From positions 1 through 44,018 of the forward strand of contig JBDRKI010000041.1 of NCBI GenBank assembly GCA_043814095.1: 44,018 nt of DNA, read 5' to 3'. Made by a program: the position numbers and the translations under genes. The notes beneath the pieces were generated by a model. That model did no database searches and was not told the origin of the DNA. It saw only the letters and a program-made list of their open reading frames with translations. Numbering within the stretch: the first letter of the stretch is position 1; each line of letters starts with the position of its first letter. This stretch comes from Armatimonadota bacterium. Its GTDB lineage: Bacteria > Vulcanimicrobiota > JACPDS01 > JBDRKI01. Shown piece by piece: positions 24,773-38,289 of the stretch.

Positions 24773-24810
24773 AAAAAACAATAAATGATATTAACAGCTT
24801 GGAGAATTAT

Positions 24811-25536
24811 ATGAAAAATATTTTTGCGTTTATAGGGAGCCCCCTTAAGGAAAAATCAAATACATTTACACTTACGAAAATGATGCTGGACCGTATTCTT
24901 GAGATTGATAACAATGTTAATATTGACGCGTATACCGCAGGCAGTTTAAAGCTTGAGTTCTGCAGGGGATGCTGGCAGTGTATGACAAGGGGGTTCTGCC
25001 CGCAGGACGCAAATGACAATATGGGGCCTCTGAAGGAAAAAATGCTTGAAGCCGATTTTATTATCCTCGGGTCTCCGGTATATACCGTTTCCGTATCGGG
25101 GCAGACAAAGACTTTTTTTGACCGCCTCTGTTCCTGGTATCACATGATAAGGCTGGCTGGCAAGCCCGGCATGAGCGTTGTTACAACGGCGCATGACGCG
25201 GCAGGTGAAGTGCATGAATTTATGACGATGCTTATGAGCGCCCTTGGCATCTATTCCGTTGCACGGCTTTCAGCTTTTGCTTATTTTCCAGGTGTTTATG
25301 CTGACCAGCAGAAAGCCAAAGATGATGCTGTAAAAACAGCTGAAATAATTTACCCTTATATTTCAGGAGAAAAGAAAGCTGAATCCAATCAGTATATGGA
25401 AGAGGCTTTTGCCGTTATGAAGAAAAAGGTTCTTTACGGCAAGAAATATCTCGGCGCGGATTATGAATATTGGGAAAAGAACGGCATGCTGGATATTAAC
25501 TCCTATGGCGAACTTCTTGAGAAAAAAAGAAAATAA
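24811..25536 (+). CDS. Flavodoxin-family iron-sulfur flavoprotein (NADPH-dependent FMN reductase fold)
   Basis: GSP....SNT, CRGCWQC.....C (CX2CX2CX5C), ADFIILGSPVY...VSGQ.K.FFDR, LAGKPG. Confidence 0.9.
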   Translation: MKNIFAFIGSPLKEKSNTFTLTKMMLDRILEIDNNVNIDAYTAGSLKLEFCRGCWQCMTRGFCPQDANDNMGPLKEKMLEADFIILGSPVYTVSVSGQTKTFFDRLCSWYHMIRLAGKPGMSVVTTAHDAAGEVHEFMTMLMSALGIYSVARLSAFAYFPGVYADQQKAKDDAVKTAEIIYPYISGEKKAESNQYMEEAFAVMKKKVLYGKKYLGADYEYWEKNGMLDINSYGELLEKKRK

Positions 25537-25539
25537 TTT

Positions 25540-27279
25540 TTAATTGTTATGTCCGGCAGGCGAGTCAAGAGCTTTTTTTAAGGAGAAATAAAACGTTGTG
25601 CCTTCTCCGGGCTTGCTTTTAAAAGTGATTTGAGATCCGTGTCCTTCAAGGAATTTTTTTACGATAAAAAGTCCGAGCCCTGTTTTCTGGAGTTTGTCTT
25701 TTCTGGACGAGAATTTTTTAAAAAGATTTGCCTGTCCGTCTTCCGGTATTCCCGTGCCGGTATCGGCCACTTCTATATTTATAAGTTCGCCAGCATCTTT
25801 TGCCGTTATCTTTATTTCTCCTTTTTCCGGAGTGTACCGTACGGCGTTGTTTATAAGATTATTAAATATTCTTTCTACTTTCAGGCAGTCGGCGTATACT
25901 CTTGTGTTTTCCGGAGCGTAAACTTCCAAAGAAATATTTTTTTTACTTACTATAGGCGTAAAGATATGTTTTAAATTGCTAAGCGCTTCATTTAGAGAAA
26001 AATTTTCAAAATCAAATTCCATATTATCAGATTCTATTTTTGAAGCTTCAACAATATTACGTATCATGTTAATAAGAATTCTGCCGGAATATTGTATATC
26101 TTCCACAAATTCTTTTTTTTCATCTGGCATCTCGCCCAGATCCGGGTCTGACAAGAGGTCGGCATAACCCATAATAGCGGCAAGGGGCGATTGAAGATCA
26201 TGAACAAGAATGGCTAAGAATTCTTCGCGCATTTTATTCAGTGATTCTTCGGCCTCCTTCCTCTTGGTGATATCAACCATTATCCCCCTTAACCCGGTTA
26301 TGTTTTGGTGGGCATATACGCGCTGGGAATATACGGACACCAAGAAGGTATTGCCGCTGCGTTTTAATGCAGTGTATTCTTCACCCGTGAAATGTCCGTC
26401 TTCCGGCAGTTTCTGCAGGGTTTCTTTGATTTTCAACCGTTCCCCGGGGGTAAAAAGCTCGGATATGGTAAGTCCGCTTTCAATATCTTTTTGCGTGTAT
26501 TCGAAAGCTTCCAGCGCTTTGGCATTAAGAAAAGTAATTGTTCCGCGCAGATCCGCTTCAAATACCGACTGGGGCAGGGAATTTATAATATCCCGCATTC
26601 TTTTTTCTTTTTCGGCAAGCATTGATTCAAACAGGTTTTTCATTTTTATTTCACGCAGAATGACTGTTATGGAAAAAATAATTACGGCAATAGCCAAAAG
26701 ATTTCCCAGTATGATGGCGGCAAGCGCGTACTTGCCGTTTATGGCAATGCAGATGTCTCTTTTTTCAATTTCCGCGGTTTCTTCTTTTTCAAACAGGGAT
26801 ATTTCAGTGTTTATTTGTTCCGTAAGAGCTTCGCCTCTGCCCGTAGCGATTATTTTTTCCGCTTCTTCTTCTCCAAGCAGCGTTCTTGTTTTAATAACTT
26901 TATCAAGATATTCAAGTCTTTGTTCAACGGCTTCCCCAATATCATTAATTTTATTTAGGCTTGTTTTGCGATTATACAGTTTAGCGATTTCTGATAATTT
27001 TTTTATATCGAAAAACACCCTGTCTTCCATTAAGCTGTATTTTTTAAGATAGGACTCATCGCCCGTGATTACATAACCTCTTGAAATAGCCTGTAGCCGG
27101 TTTGTATCGGCAAGCAGGGTTTTAAGGTTAATTATAATTCGGACGGATTGATACCGCTGTTTCGCGGAGTCAAGGGCATTGTAGATTGACAGAAAGGAAA
27201 AGGCGCTGATCAAGATAACAAAAAAAAGAACCAGCACAAAACCTGTTAGAACCCTTAAGGAAAGAATATCTTTTTTCAT
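25540..27279 (-). CDS. Sensor histidine kinase with CHASE3-like and PAS domains
   Basis: RGYVITGDESYL (CHASE3), PAS segment, VHDLQSPL H-box, NLINNAVRY, DTG.GI, GLGLFIV, G.GTTF. Confidence 0.92.
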   Translation of the reverse strand: MKKDILSLRVLTGFVLVLFFVILISAFSFLSIYNALDSAKQRYQSVRIIINLKTLLADTNRLQAISRGYVITGDESYLKKYSLMEDRVFFDIKKLSEIAKLYNRKTSLNKINDIGEAVEQRLEYLDKVIKTRTLLGEEEAEKIIATGRGEALTEQINTEISLFEKEETAEIEKRDICIAINGKYALAAIILGNLLAIAVIIFSITVILREIKMKNLFESMLAEKEKRMRDIINSLPQSVFEADLRGTITFLNAKALEAFEYTQKDIESGLTISELFTPGERLKIKETLQKLPEDGHFTGEEYTALKRSGNTFLVSVYSQRVYAHQNITGLRGIMVDITKRKEAEESLNKMREEFLAILVHDLQSPLAAIMGYADLLSDPDLGEMPDEKKEFVEDIQYSGRILINMIRNIVEASKIESDNMEFDFENFSLNEALSNLKHIFTPIVSKKNISLEVYAPENTRVYADCLKVERIFNNLINNAVRYTPEKGEIKITAKDAGELINIEVADTGTGIPEDGQANLFKKFSSRKDKLQKTGLGLFIVKKFLEGHGSQITFKSKPGEGTTFYFSLKKALDSPAGHNN

Positions 27280-27336
27280 ATTAAAACTAATAATTCGTTT
27301 TTGAATACAAAAATCCTGTAAAAGAGGATTATAAAA

Positions 27337-27384
27337 TTTAATATGTGTTTTTTTTCACAAAATCTTCAAAAAACACATATTAAA
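27337..27384. repeat. Perfect 17-bp inverted repeat upstream of the histidine kinase
   Basis: TTTAATATGTGTTTTTT-14 nt-AAAAAACACATATTAAA. Confidence 0.75.
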
Positions 27385-27690
27385 AACACAAAAAACCGTT
27401 ATAAATAAGAAAAAATTTCAAAAAGATGTTTTTTTGTTTTTTTTAAGCATGACCATCAATTTTTAATCCTGTTCAAAACGGTATATGTAAACAGTAAAAA
27501 ATCTTTAAAAATAAAGAAAATTACAAATGTGAAGAAGTTGTGAAGAATTAATAACTTTAAAAATGGCTTAAAATAAGAAAATATGGACACATAAAAAAAA
27601 ACGCAAATAAAGAAAAATTTACGTCTTTCCACTTTGTTTATAACTGTCTTCTCACCTATATTATAGCACAAAAAGGGTATATTTTTCAAG

Positions 27691-27719
27691 TAGACTTTTT
27701 GCCTTCCCGGTGCTATTAT
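27691..27719 (+). promoter_or_regulatory. Sigma70-type promoter driving the long leader and the alanine-free gene
   Basis: TAGACT-17 bp-TATTAT with TG extension. Confidence 0.7.
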
Positions 27720-27725
27720 ACAGTC

Positions 27726-28037
27726 AGAAGGAAGAGAGTCACCTGCCGCACCTTGAAAACAGAGACATGAAAAAGAGAATGAAGGGATATTGATTTTAGG
27801 TACCGAGCGCGAGGTATCCAAAATCAGCATCTAATCGGACTCTTAAAAATCTTCACGATCCTGCCTCTTGTATTAATCTTCTAAGTGTTTGCCGGTTTTA
27901 TTCTTGCTTGTTTTATGTTAAGCAGCAGCTGCTAATTATTATGGCCATAATAATAACATAGAAAAAGAAAGGGTAAGGCCTCGAACTAATACAGCCCAAA
28001 AAACTAAGGGTTAAAATTTTGAAAGGGGGAATCTATC
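27726..28037 (+). ncRNA. Candidate structured 5' leader / cis-regulatory RNA (unclassified)
   Basis: boxA-like GCACCTTGAAAAC at 27748, long hairpin 27786..27831, nested palindromes 27911..27963; no known riboswitch recognised. Confidence 0.45.
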
Positions 28038-28943
28038 ATGATTACCAAAACAATTAACAACCAAAAAACCAGTACCGTAAAAGGCGGTACAACAAATCAG
28101 GAAACTTTAACGAAGGTTTCAGTAAGAAAAGTAGTTGGATTTATCTGCACTCCCGAGGGAGAAAAAGGGTCTACTTATGAGCTTACCAGAAGTCTGGTTG
28201 AAAGACTGGTCAGCGAAAACAGCAACATGAGCGGCGAGCTCATAACAATAACCGAACCCATACTGCAGAACCGTCCGACCCAGGATGTTATGGAGAACTT
28301 ATCTTATAATTATTCAAAGGGTAACACCAATTATAAGGGAGTAAACGGCAGCATAAACACAATTAACACTCTGATAGAAAAAATGATAAATTCAGACGTG
28401 GTAATTTTCTCAACATCCGTAGACAGCACGCATATACCCAGCCAGGTTATGTTATTCTTCAAGGGCCTCGGCGAATGGCTCTACAGATTTCCGCTGGTAG
28501 GTAAAACCGGAATTATAATAGTCACATCACCCGAATCTGATGTGCAGAACACGGTTAAATACATTTCGGATTCAATGATGACAACCGGTATTAAATGTGT
28601 AGGAACTCTTATAAGCAAAACCGATTCAAACGGCAACCTTATAAGCTCCGAAAGCATGCAGCAGGGAATCAAAAATCTTTGCAGCGAAATTTCACCTTAC
28701 ATAACCGGTGAAAGAAAAATAGAATCAGACACAGGTCTTGAAAATATTTTTCACTCTGTAAAGAGGAGAGTTGTAACAAGCTACAACCTGTCTCCCGAGT
28801 ATAAATACTGGAGAGAAAGAGGTCTGCTTACGGTAGACTCTTTCAGCCAGCTGCTTGATACACTGCGCGAAGACAGCACCTATGAAAGCACAACCACTCC
28901 CCAGTCCGGCACAATAACAACCACTTCAGTTGTTCTGGTATAA
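28038..28943 (+). CDS. Alanine-free, degenerate flavodoxin-fold paralog of 24811..25536
   Basis: Aligns along its length with the paralog (EKM..SD.VI, LVGKTG, PYI.GE.K.ES, Y.YW...G.L...S...LL). Zero Ala in 301 aa; Fe-S Cys motif absent; AAAGGGGG RBS. Confidence 0.85.
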   Translation: MITKTINNQKTSTVKGGTTNQETLTKVSVRKVVGFICTPEGEKGSTYELTRSLVERLVSENSNMSGELITITEPILQNRPTQDVMENLSYNYSKGNTNYKGVNGSINTINTLIEKMINSDVVIFSTSVDSTHIPSQVMLFFKGLGEWLYRFPLVGKTGIIIVTSPESDVQNTVKYISDSMMTTGIKCVGTLISKTDSNGNLISSESMQQGIKNLCSEISPYITGERKIESDTGLENIFHSVKRRVVTSYNLSPEYKYWRERGLLTVDSFSQLLDTLREDSTYESTTTPQSGTITTTSVVLV

Positions 28944-28959: not shown

Positions 28960-28996
28960 AAATAAAGGGCGTCCTGTAAAGGGGCGTCCTTTATTT
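28960..28996 (+). terminator. Intrinsic terminator
   Basis: AAATAAAGGGCGTCCT-gtaaa-GGGGCGTCCTTTATTT. Confidence 0.7.
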
Positions 28997-35477: not shown

Positions 35478-36908
35478 TTATTTATTAGTGATTCCCAGGT
35501 CTCTCAGTTTTTTGCCGGATTTAAGGTTGAATTCAAGTTCTTCAAGTGTAATACCTTTGGTCTCAGGCACGAACATTGCCACAAAAATGATTGCAAAGAT
35601 ACAGAATCCTCCGAACACAAAGAAAATAGAGGAGTTTCCGAATTTCTGCATGAAAGTAAGGGCGTTTGCCATAACAAGACCTGCGAATGTCCAGTTGACC
35701 ATTGTGGTTATTGTCATACCTACTTCGCGTCCCTCAAGCGGGAAGATTTCCGAACATACGAGCCATACCACAGGACCCCATGAAACAGCAAAACCGAAGA
35801 TATATACAATTACTGCTATTAGAAGAACCATTTTCGGCAAACTGGTTATTATTGAAGGGTCTGTTGTGCCGCCAATCATGTAAAACGCGATTCCCGAAGC
35901 CACCATTGTTATAAACATTGACGCGGCACCGACATATAGAAGTTTTTTACGCCCCCATTTTTCCACCAAGAATATCGCAGGGAAAGTAAATAACATATTA
36001 ACTGTGGGCACGGTCATCATGCCGATGATTCCCTTTATGCCTGCGTATCCGAAAATTGTAGGAGCGTAATAAATCATCATATTTATACCTACAAGCTGCT
36101 GGAACATCTGCAGAAGTACGCCCACTATAAGCACTTTAAAGAAATATCCTTTGAATATTATGCCTATGCCTGCTCCTTTAGGGCCGTGCAGGGCTTCTTC
36201 TATTTCTTTTATTTCAAGGTCTATTTCTTGCTGGGTGTTGAGAGTTTTCTTTAGCACTTTAAGGGTCTCGTCTTTTTTTCCTTTAAGCATTAACCATCTC
36301 GGGCTTTCGGGAATAAGGAACGTGCCGACAAACATAAATATAGCGAAAAGCGTAATGGTTAGAAACATTAAAGGGAGTGATGTTGCCGGGTTAAGAAAAA
36401 TCCGGACAATAAAGACGTTTGTTACAGATATTAAGAAAATGCCTATTGTAATCATAAGCTGGAAAAGTGTTCCCATTGAGCCGCGTATTTTTGCGGGCGC
36501 CGTTTCAGAAAGGTATAGCGGTACTATAAATGATGCTATGCCTACCGCGAAACCGAGAAAGAAGCGGCATGCGGATAATACGGCTATAGGAGGCAGAAGA
36601 GCTGAATAGGCGGAAGCTGTTACAAAAATGAACCCTGCCAGTATCAAGCTTTTTTTGCGTCCCAAGAATCTTGCAAAAATTCCCGAAAGAAGCGCTCCTA
36701 TAATACCCCCGACAGCCAGTATCGCGGAATAATTTTCGCCGGCTTTGATCCCGAACTGGTAATATTTTTCTATTGTTTCAAGAGAGTTTGCTATAAATCC
36801 CTGGTCCAAACCGAAGAGAAGTCCGCCGAGTGCTGCAACCATGCATATGAAATACACAATTGTTTTAAAGCTGCCCGGTGATGTTCCTGTGTTAATTTTT
36901 TCTTCCAT
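35478..36908 (-). CDS. Sugar porter family MFS transporter
   Basis: ALGGLLFGLD, GRKK, PLYLSE.AP..IRG, PESPRWL, FQQLVGIN...YY, WGPVVW...SEIFP, VPETKG; start ATG 36908 after GGAGG. Confidence 0.95.
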   Translation of the reverse strand: MEEKINTGTSPGSFKTIVYFICMVAALGGLLFGLDQGFIANSLETIEKYYQFGIKAGENYSAILAVGGIIGALLSGIFARFLGRKKSLILAGFIFVTASAYSALLPPIAVLSACRFFLGFAVGIASFIVPLYLSETAPAKIRGSMGTLFQLMITIGIFLISVTNVFIVRIFLNPATSLPLMFLTITLFAIFMFVGTFLIPESPRWLMLKGKKDETLKVLKKTLNTQQEIDLEIKEIEEALHGPKGAGIGIIFKGYFFKVLIVGVLLQMFQQLVGINMMIYYAPTIFGYAGIKGIIGMMTVPTVNMLFTFPAIFLVEKWGRKKLLYVGAASMFITMVASGIAFYMIGGTTDPSIITSLPKMVLLIAVIVYIFGFAVSWGPVVWLVCSEIFPLEGREVGMTITTMVNWTFAGLVMANALTFMQKFGNSSIFFVFGGFCIFAIIFVAMFVPETKGITLEELEFNLKSGKKLRDLGITNK

Positions 36909-36930
36909 GTTGCCTCCGTTAAATATATTT

Positions 36931-38289
36931 TTACGTCTTTGCTTTCTTTGAAGCGGCGATGGCCGCGATAATAGCCGCGCCTTTTCCGGAGCCGTCTTTT
37001 GCAAGGGCCAGTTTGATGCGGGAAGCCTTTTCTTTGAATAAGCTTTGGAATACCTCAATCATTATGTTGCTGAATCTCGGGTATTTTTCATAAAGGGTCC
37101 CGTCAACTCCTACCGTATGGCTATTCTTTAGTTTGGGATCAATCCAAGTTATTACCGCGGAGATAGCTCCTGCGGCAACTTTTGCGGCCCTTGTTGAAAC
37201 AAACTGGCATAGTTTTTTCATGGCCAGTTTATCATGAAGAGTAACTTCCGTTATTCCTTTAAGAGTTAGGAATTCTTCTATCGAAGAGTAATTGGCGGAT
37301 TCATCTGAAGCTATTAAAGACATATCTTCTGTCTGGAAGGAATCTTTTTTTATGAAAACTTTGCAGTCCGGATCATTGAATATTAAGCCCCTTTTTATAA
37401 GGTCGCATATTATTATGCGTGTTATCTCGCCCAGGTACATCCCGGAAACCATCTTTTCCAGATACTGACACCCCGTATTCAATGATTCATCATCAACTTC
37501 TTTATCGTAAGGGGTAAATCTTAATTTATTAAAGTTGCCCCACTCCATATTTATTACCATTGTTCCCTTAGGATCAACGCCGCGCCATTTTTTAATATTA
37601 GCAATTTTCTCGGGATAACACGCATTTGTGCCTGTCCCGAGTATAACGCCCATATCGCAGTTCGGATCATTATAGCTTTTAGCAGCTAAGGTTCCCACAG
37701 TGTCGTTTGCCAGAGCGGCAACCTGTATGCATTTAATGCCTTTGCGTTTAAGGGCTTCGTTTAAGAGTATAATAACATCTTTTCCTTCAACGCCTTTGGC
37801 GGTAAAACCCTTTGTCCATACTATAAGTTTGCCTGCGGCAATATTAGTCTGCTCCACGGGGAAAGAAAAGGTGAATGCCAGGTCGTATTTTTTAGTCTTA
37901 CTAATACCGTTTTCATCAAGAAATGCTTCAATGCATTCTGCTATAAAATCAAAAAGTTCTTCACCTTTTCCTGTCATGGCTTTTTTGGGAAGGATAAATT
38001 TGCTTACGGCTGATATATTTGAAGATCCTTTGCCGTCAAGCTCCACAGCCAGCACCCTTAAATTAGTGCCGCCCAGGTCAAGGGCAAGGAACTTTCCTTT
38101 TTCCGTGCCTTTGGGCTTATCTACAAAAGCCGGGATCATTTTTAAAGAACTTGCAAAACCTGAGAGTCCTTTCTGCATCTCAGAATGAAAACCCTGAATT
38201 ATTATTTTTATATCCCCTGTGGTAATTTTAAAGAGTTTTTCAAGATAAGCGGTAAATTCATCGTAGCCGATAGGAGCTATTGTCATCAT
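36931..38289 (-). CDS. Hexokinase, eukaryote-type family (Hexokinase_1/Hexokinase_2 domains)
   Basis: LALDLGGTNLRV, FTFSFPVEQ, WTKGF, NDTVGT, VILGTGTNACY, INMEWGNF, EKMVSGMYLGE, DGSGKGAA. Confidence 0.93.
   Translation of the reverse strand: MMTIAPIGYDEFTAYLEKLFKITTGDIKIIIQGFHSEMQKGLSGFASSLKMIPAFVDKPKGTEKGKFLALDLGGTNLRVLAVELDGKGSSNISAVSKFILPKKAMTGKGEELFDFIAECIEAFLDENGISKTKKYDLAFTFSFPVEQTNIAAGKLIVWTKGFTAKGVEGKDVIILLNEALKRKGIKCIQVAALANDTVGTLAAKSYNDPNCDMGVILGTGTNACYPEKIANIKKWRGVDPKGTMVINMEWGNFNKLRFTPYDKEVDDESLNTGCQYLEKMVSGMYLGEITRIIICDLIKRGLIFNDPDCKVFIKKDSFQTEDMSLIASDESANYSSIEEFLTLKGITEVTLHDKLAMKKLCQFVSTRAAKVAAGAISAVITWIDPKLKNSHTVGVDGTLYEKYPRFSNIMIEVFQSLFKEKASRIKLALAKDGSGKGAAIIAAIAASKKAKT

Follow-up and report, generated by a model that had tools for sequence, protein, structure and literature searches.

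A candidate structured 5′ leader upstream of an alanine-free gene in an uncultured Armatimonadota bacterium

Introduction

Why should a gene whose product contains no alanine be preceded by several hundred nucleotides that encode no credible protein? The question is raised by contig JBDRKI010000041.1 of an Armatimonadota bacterium (assembly GCA_043814095.1), whose positions 1 to 44,018, in nucleotides (nt), are called the window here. It is contig C41 of a bacterial genome of 2.5 Mb, which is assembled in 129 contigs and is 99% complete. The gene is the only one with zero alanine among 2107 open reading frames (ORFs), and an initial annotation, made from the letters alone, had proposed that a structured leader ahead of it acts as an unclassified cis-regulatory RNA or as a small RNA.

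Here we report that the putative 5′ leader of this gene is plausibly an unclassified cis-acting RNA, a proposal that is as yet unproven. Its predicted structure appears to be real, is moderately well supported and falls into no known RNA family. If its most conspicuous part, a three-way junction, works, it would represent an unclassified cis-regulatory leader element in a deep, uncultured lineage, and it would gate a very odd gene. To our knowledge, there has been little regulatory-RNA work on such lineages. As a singleton without orthologues, the leader element is a lead for transcript mapping rather than a discovery.

A predicted three-way junction on the sense strand

The second arm and the two perfect palindromes pointed out in the initial annotation are predicted to fold together into one Y-shaped three-way junction of 100 nt, specific to the plus strand. 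Its basal helix, P1, pairs 27887-27919 with 27955-27986 through 29 pairs in four segments, 6 of which are G-U; the strings of the second arm are TTTTATGTTA (27912-27921) and TAACATAGAA (27954-27963). P2 (27921-27933) is a stem of 5 base pairs (bp) that carries the 10-nt palindrome AGCAGCTGCT (27924-27933). P3 (27935-27954) is the 20-nt palindrome ATTATTATGGCCATAATAAT, folded into 8 A-U pairs and a GGCC loop. Folded as 27880-28000, the plus strand reaches a free energy (dG) of -32.0 with a z score of -2.7, and 4 of 300 shuffles fold as well, whereas the minus strand gives a dG of -20.1 and a z score of +0.56. Pair probabilities in the junction are mostly 0.9-1.0, and its plus-strand specificity arises through the G-U pairs.

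As a background for these values, 3711 intergenic 110-nt windows of the genome were folded on both strands; 27880-27989 fell into this sample by its own phase, without any selection by hand. In GC-adjusted energy it ranks at the 2.0th percentile of the sample. The difference between its two strands is 17.2 kcal/mol, compared with a 99th percentile of 14.4, which places it at rank 9 of 3711. The 40 most strand-asymmetric windows include five from the 16S and 23S rRNA, and thus strand asymmetry detects real structured RNA. The strand favoured by the junction fold is that of the downstream gene. Judged from these predicted folds, the junction is the best comparison-free evidence that a sense-strand RNA structure may be kept at this locus.

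No match to any family was obtained when the whole window was scanned with the Rfam 15 covariance models at the gathering score. At E<=10 over 27200-28150, only eukaryotic snoRNA and miRNA models responded, with E values of 1.3-8 that amount to noise. The features of the locus are collected in Table 1.

Table 1 Features at the alanine-free gene and its upstream gap
Feature	Position	Strand	Description
CHASE3/PAS histidine-kinase gene	25540-27279	minus	Left flank of the gap
Gap between divergent genes	27280-28037		758 bp, AT-rich
Divergent partner promoter	27660-27689	minus	Candidate, TTGAAA-18-TGcTATAAT; 11/12 hexamer matches plus TG; directed toward the histidine-kinase gene
Candidate sigma-70 promoter of the alanine-free gene	27691-27719	plus	TAGACT-17-TGcTATTAT, extended -10; 9/12 matches plus TG
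Putative 5′ untranslated leader	27726-28037	plus	About 311 nt, without a credible ORF
boxA-like motif	27748-27760	plus	GCACCTTGAAAAC; weak resemblance
Hairpin 1	27786-27831	plus	Predicted, 46 nt with 17 pairs; not followed by a U-tract
Linker	27832-27886	plus	Unstructured, pyrimidine-rich, G-poor, roughly 55-65 nt; mildly rut-like
Y-shaped three-way junction	27887-27986	plus	Predicted fold, 100 nt; encloses both palindromes
Shine-Dalgarno sequence	28023-28029	plus	AGGGGGA, strong; 8 nt before the ATG at 28038
Alanine-free gene	28038-28943	plus	301 amino acids (aa); right flank of the gap; diverged Isf/FMN_red-like paralogue
Intrinsic terminator of the alanine-free gene	28960-28996	plus	16-pair stem with 6 G-C pairs, then a T-run

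A candidate back-to-back promoter pair and a monocistronic gene

Every string quoted in the initial annotation was found in its place by direct reading, among them the parts of the proposed TG-extended promoter: TAGACT (27691-27696), a 17-nt spacer, TG (27711-27712) and TATTAT (27714-27719). This promoter appears credible. Its TGnTAtAAT style is common to the two rRNA promoters examined in the genome and to a promoter on contig C39, and it has a mirrored divergent partner. The two stand back-to-back with 1 nt between their -35 boxes, the minus-strand one being the stronger, and their extended -10 elements together make up an inverted repeat of 14 nt. Such a mirrored pair is unlikely to have arisen by chance. 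The genome encodes factors of the sigma-70 family (4 matches), and transcription of the gene is predicted to start at A27726 or G27727.

In this genome, intergenic DNA is 3.2 times richer than coding DNA in promoter-like sites with the TG extension (0.188 vs 0.058 per kilobase (kb) per strand), and the -10 box lies a median of 59 nt, and in 14 of 73 such sites more than 250 nt, from the start codon. Both figures come from crude ORF calls, under which the present promoter was apparently counted as coding by way of a 124-codon ORF, since it is absent from the intergenic sites listed. A promoter scan of the gap found no usable promoter nearer the ATG. This makes a leader of about 311 nt the preferred reading, and the region is probably the untranslated 5′ part of the gene's mRNA. 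The length of about 310 nt given in the initial annotation holds to that extent, with a start position that is a prediction. Because promoter-like sites are common in the gap, we regard the promoter call as likely but not certain.

ORFs in the leader span 21-28 aa only, apart from one of 124 aa on the minus strand that was judged spurious by eye, and reading of the sequence revealed nothing like a Shine-Dalgarno site ahead of any of them, the 124-aa one included. Searches of the gap with tblastx, blastn and blastx found no decayed gene, repeat or mobile element. The alanine-free gene has its own Shine-Dalgarno site and its own terminator and is thus a monocistronic unit.

A possible mode of action

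We tentatively favour the explanation that the 5′ leader of this flavoprotein-like gene contains a cis-acting RNA, which would act by way of early, Rho-dependent termination, of a factor that recognises or cleaves the junction, or of both; we hold this as possible rather than probable. Transcription would start at the extended -10 sigma-70 promoter, back-to-back with that of the histidine-kinase gene, and the RNA would contain, in this order, the 46-nt hairpin 1, the unstructured linker and the 100-nt junction, the last forming on the sense strand only. The junction would then set the amount of full-length, translatable mRNA. How it might do so is speculative. One option is that the junction serves as a docking or cleavage site, its helix of 24-29 bp being of the type that RNase III takes as a substrate. 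The other is that it lies behind a Rho-loading stretch as the checkpoint at which the polymerase pauses and the RNA folds. The genome carries the genes for Rho, NusB and RNase III. Control of the CsrA type through GGA motifs was also considered and dropped, as CsrA was not found in the genome.

Long regulatory 5′ leaders that are Rho-attenuated or RNase III-processed include the mgtA, corA and rho leaders and the pnp and rnc leaders in enterobacteria. The present leader resembles them in its several hundred untranslated nt, in a C-rich, G-poor stretch that lacks structure and precedes stable helices, and in a long, nearly continuous duplex of RNase III substrate size; genes for Rho and RNase III are present. 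It differs from all of them in that no sequence or structural homology and no Rfam match links it to them, and it has no leader peptide or known ligand domain.

The stretch that would load Rho is the linker, for which folding of 27832-27897 gives a z score of +0.38. The window 27816-27893 has a C/G ratio of 2.22, 12% G and 60% pyrimidines, values reached by 4-6.5% of intergenic windows.

Evidence against a regulatory leader

Several results weigh against this explanation, and they are gathered here. The first concern the transcript. We infer sense transcription of the leader, its start and indeed the making of the RNA at all, from the predicted promoter. The two RNA-library contigs, both from one metatranscriptome run, cover 28507-28787 without differences, which speaks for expression of the gene, but they end inside it and neither falls on the leader; DNA carry-over is possible for them. 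Two DNA sequencing runs yielded only fragments. As all of these are contigs, they show neither a start site nor the absence of a transcript. Moreover, the gap holds 10 promoter-like sites, compared with 5.8 +/- 2.3 in shuffles.

The second group concerns the structure outside the junction. The whole leader (27726-28045) folds with a z score of -1.52, and 9 of 100 shuffles fold equally well. Hairpin 1, the long hairpin of the initial annotation, is present and stable, but it is ordinary for intergenic DNA and strand-symmetric. Its lower stem spans 12 positions, one of them an A-C mismatch, and is topped by a 6-bp upper stem, GGTACC/GGTATC; the pair probabilities of the hairpin are 0.88-1.0. Its plus strand has a dG of -15.8 kcal/mol (z -4.8), a value reached by 0 of 300 dinucleotide shuffles, and its minus strand comes close at -15.5 (z -4.2). 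In GC-adjusted energy, its 110-nt window ranks only 14.5th in percentile terms when set against the other intergenic windows. The outer stem that had been suggested to enclose it, GAGAGTC (27734-27740) with GACTCTT (27838-27844), turns out to be a minor alternative, with a pair probability of 0.19 vs 0.8 for the pairing of CUCUU (27840-27844) with the nearer AAGAG (27773-27777).

No classical expression platform is visible either. The leader contains no terminator/antiterminator pair, and the closest approach to an intrinsic-terminator attenuator is the 5-bp stem at 27921-27933 followed by AATTATTATG, with no U-runs after hairpin 1 or the junction. The Shine-Dalgarno sequence is partly paired in the predicted ensemble (unpaired probability 0.06-0.6). 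Its competing partners are 27751-27754 (0.24-0.28), 27864-27869 (0.12-0.17) and 28045-28046 (0.47), so that it would have several weak partners without a single sequestering helix. The likeness of the linker to a rut site is mild.

The third group concerns conservation. A DNA search found no second copy of the leader in its own genome. Single-sequence covariance models built for the junction and for the 5′ part of the leader each match, in this genome, only their own sequence and its reverse strand, and a search of 150 other genomes of the phylum with the junction model gave no match. At the DNA level, neither leader nor gene has a match in 40 relatives (one genome of the same order, the rest at the level of the phylum); four of the 40 show AT-rich matches of 34-41 nt only, at 27344-27526, upstream of the promoter. 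The leader also has no match in phages and plasmids. Among 1.84 billion representatives, none is related to the alanine-free protein at more than 35% identity, and a word-index search likewise turned up none. Of 130 candidate stretches from a metagenome scan with the protein, 3 are partial relatives, which share 31-36% of 67-68 residues with it. These searches returned no orthologues of gene or leader from which conservation or covariation could be read.

Many of these results would be expected if the region had no dedicated function. It would then be an AT-rich spacer in which hairpin, junction and palindromes are by-products, at most stabilising the mRNA, and the real start may lie elsewhere. 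The unexceptional fold of the whole leader, the ordinary energy of the hairpin 1 window, the abundance of promoter-like sites in the gap and the singleton nature of the element all fit. So do the 40 perfect 20-nt palindromes in the genome, and the alanine-free gene, a lineage-specific orphan, may itself evolve fast. Three observations argue in the other direction: the junction, with its rank in strand asymmetry and its energy near the 2nd percentile, folds on the strand of the gene; the mirrored promoter pair is hard to ascribe to chance; and no alternative promoter lies near the ATG. We consider a region without function rather unlikely, while giving it serious weight.

RNA junction or DNA operator

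The palindromes allow another explanation, in which ATTATTATGGCCATAATAAT, perhaps together with AGCAGCTGCT, is a DNA operator bound by a dimeric transcription factor that works as a roadblock to elongation or on a promoter further downstream that has escaped recognition. The symmetry of both palindromes continues unbroken through their centres (GGCC and GC), a feature that an RNA hairpin does not need and that two-fold protein binding favours. Like the palindromic operators of dimeric repressors, the longer one is a perfect 20-bp two-fold symmetric site between promoter and gene. With 40 such palindromes in the genome, 22 of them intergenic, about 0.02 are expected per 312-nt leader, which makes the present one unusual, though not unique in kind.

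Unlike such operators, it is separated from the best promoter, which lies upstream, by about 210 bp, and it does not recur at other promoters. Beyond it there is no further promoter-like site. Intergenic DNA of the genome contains no other copy with up to 3 mismatches; one similar site, C55:15761, is inside an ORF according to crude gene calls. Exact matches to its 18-nt core occur in 27 of 185,579 species genomes, scattered across phyla of bacteria and archaea and with no flanks in common with each other or with the junction. No transcription-factor gene was seen among the 24 ORFs scanned across the window. The palindromes are also embedded in P1, whose helix depends on G-U pairs and which is thus an RNA feature. 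We therefore regard an operator as doubtful, and a cis-acting RNA remains our preferred explanation of the junction.

A different palindrome family was noticed elsewhere in the genome. The sequence (TA)ACAAAATGTTAACATTTTGT(TA) and its close variants, 18-24 nt long, recur in intergenic DNA of at least 8 contigs (C6:15065, C28:1176, C35:5066, C43:1224, C95:1597, C109:15376, C120:5188 and C122:8705; also C55:15561-15640). The family looks like a regulon operator or a small repeat.

The boxA-like motif and the small-RNA alternative

The initial annotation had also noted, by resemblance only, a boxA-like motif in the leader. If it were a boxA, GCACCUUGAAAAC would recruit NusB/NusE so that the polymerase resists Rho termination across the long untranslated leader or, in the mode of suhB, the gene is repressed. 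The genome has better copies for comparison: GTTCATTGAAAACTAAATAG in the rRNA leader, which precedes the 16S gene by 143 nt; GATCTTTGAAAACTGCATA, between 16S and 23S; and a non-rRNA copy on contig C39, GTTGATTGAAAACTGAATAG, right after a promoter. These three agree at 15 positions, of which the leader motif, GCACCTTGAAAACAGAGACA, keeps 9; it loses T3, T14, A17, T18, A19 and the CU..AUA flank. With T3 and the 3′ flank gone, the resemblance is weak and the boxA reading, to which the leader owed much of its appeal, is not upheld.

Against the rRNA-leader boxA alone, the motif matches at 10 of 13 positions. The two have the core YUUGAAAAC in common; as YTTGAAAAC it occurs at 116 genomic sites, with about 0.007 expected per leader, and here it follows the predicted transcription start by about 22 nt, in a leader that is untranslated, which is a likeness to rRNA-leader boxA and to suhB-type boxA repression (PMC5725501). 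NusB and Rho are encoded, a mildly rut-like stretch lies downstream of the motif, and boxA targets outside rRNA are documented in PMC5725501. However, the motif has 3 mismatches to GYTCTTTAANA, the boxA consensus given there; 1252 genomic sites lie within 3 mismatches of the rRNA boxA and so match it equally well, which corresponds to about 0.08 per 312-nt strand; and TTGAAA within the motif can also be scored as a -35 hexamer (TTGAAA-16-GAGAAT). It is very unlikely that the leader works as a boxA element.

The copy on contig C39 is, by its sequence, a much better non-rRNA boxA candidate than the leader motif. At C39:3716-5201, a promoter, TTGCCC-17-TGcTATAAT, is followed at once by GTTGATTGAAAACTGAATAG, a leader of about 275 nt and a gene with an HD_4 domain. 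The motif (C39:3757) matches the rRNA-leader boxA at 12 of 13 positions and has the flank as well. A window of this leader (C39:3883) is among the 40 most strand-asymmetric folds, and the locus has no Rfam match.

The initial annotation offered a small RNA as an alternative, that is, an independent transcript from the promoter at 27691-27719 that ends before the gene. A credible promoter followed by stable structures is what one would expect of it. However, no intrinsic terminator follows either structure: there is no U-tract after hairpin 1 or the junction, and the only terminator-like match is the 5-bp stem inside the junction. The searches described above also gave no homologues and no Rfam match, and this alternative has a very small chance of being right.

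The alanine-free gene and a possible alanine link

The composition of the downstream gene is exceptional. Among ORFs of at least 200 aa, four of 1533 contain less than 2% alanine, this gene included (chance probability ~9e-10). Its product is rich in serine (12%) and threonine (13%), compared with 6.2% and 4.9% in the proteome. GC dinucleotides are absent from codon positions 1-2 but occur 24 and 13 times in the other phases; since GC is missing only there, the lack of alanine is not explained by a DNA word being avoided. An Isf/FMN_red-like gene at 24799-25536 encodes a paralogue from which the protein has diverged (24% identity, E value 4e-28). The alanine-free protein has lost the four cysteines of the family and gained Thr-rich extensions at both ends. 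A literature search on alanine-free proteins found no relevant work among the papers listed.

It is tempting to speculate that the junction is the sensor of a new class of leader RNA, releasing synthesis of a protein cleared of alanine under a shortage of alanyl-tRNA, be it caused by starvation or by attack on tRNA-Ala or its synthetase, AlaRS. If true, such an alanyl-tRNA sensor would form a dedicated circuit, with a protein at its centre whose synthesis remains possible when one amino acid is missing. What speaks for the alanine link is the composition of the gene and nothing beyond it, and we consider this idea a long shot.

The T-box riboswitch (RF00230) is a known system close to this idea, in that a leader of a few hundred nt likewise stands upstream of a gene that is oddly related to one amino acid. 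In hairpin 1, the apical sequence UAGGUACCG loosely resembles the T-box core. The present leader differs in having no covariance-model match, no UGGN bulge for tRNA-Ala and no terminator/antiterminator pair. Least probable of all is a leader that senses alanine or tRNA-Ala in the manner of a T-box or a new riboswitch and switches on a protein makeable without alanine: the zero-alanine gene downstream and the reading GCA GCA GCU GCU of P2 in one frame favour it, but RF00230 has no match at the gathering score in the window, at E<=10 in 27200-28150 or at E<=1 in the genome; tRNA-Ala genes end in ACCA and direct reading finds no TGGT within 27726-28037, so that the leader has no UGGU to pair with that end; the four GCN codons directly follow an in-frame TAA stop and thus are not a leader peptide; and tRNA-Ala, at ranks 6, 14 and 16 of 50, is unremarkable in duplex predictions with the leader, in which long artificial duplexes with all 50 tRNAs swamp any signal.

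Neighbouring sequences

On the other side of the gap, the histidine kinase has generic catalytic-domain relatives in 21 of 200 other genomes of the phylum that were searched, and no full-length orthologue among them. No gene order shared with these relatives is evident from the match table, in which the neighbouring genes at those loci were left unread. Between the kinase gene and the divergent promoters lies a perfect direct repeat, TGTGAAGAA gt TGTGAAGAA (27528-27547), with an 11-bp spacing, or one turn of DNA; it resembles a response-regulator box. At 27337-27384, TTTAATATGTGTTTTTT and AAAAAACACATATTAAA are the 17-nt arms of a perfect inverted repeat around a loop of 14 nt. This repeat is followed on the minus strand by a U-rich run and sits in a very AT-rich candidate leader of about 370 nt of the histidine-kinase gene.

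Elsewhere in the genome, within C38:12783-13700, an insert of about 850 nt apparently splits the 16S rRNA gene close to its 3′ end, the true 3′ end, GAAGTCGTAACAAGGTA, being at C38:13683. The insert matches no intron family at the Rfam threshold and holds an ORF that is LAGLIDADG-like by eye. Within the window, the minus strand at 35481-38289 encodes a two-domain hexokinase (Pfam Hexokinase_1 and Hexokinase_2) that adjoins a Sugar_tr/MFS transporter. Hexokinases of this type are mainly eukaryotic and would be unusual for a bacterium.

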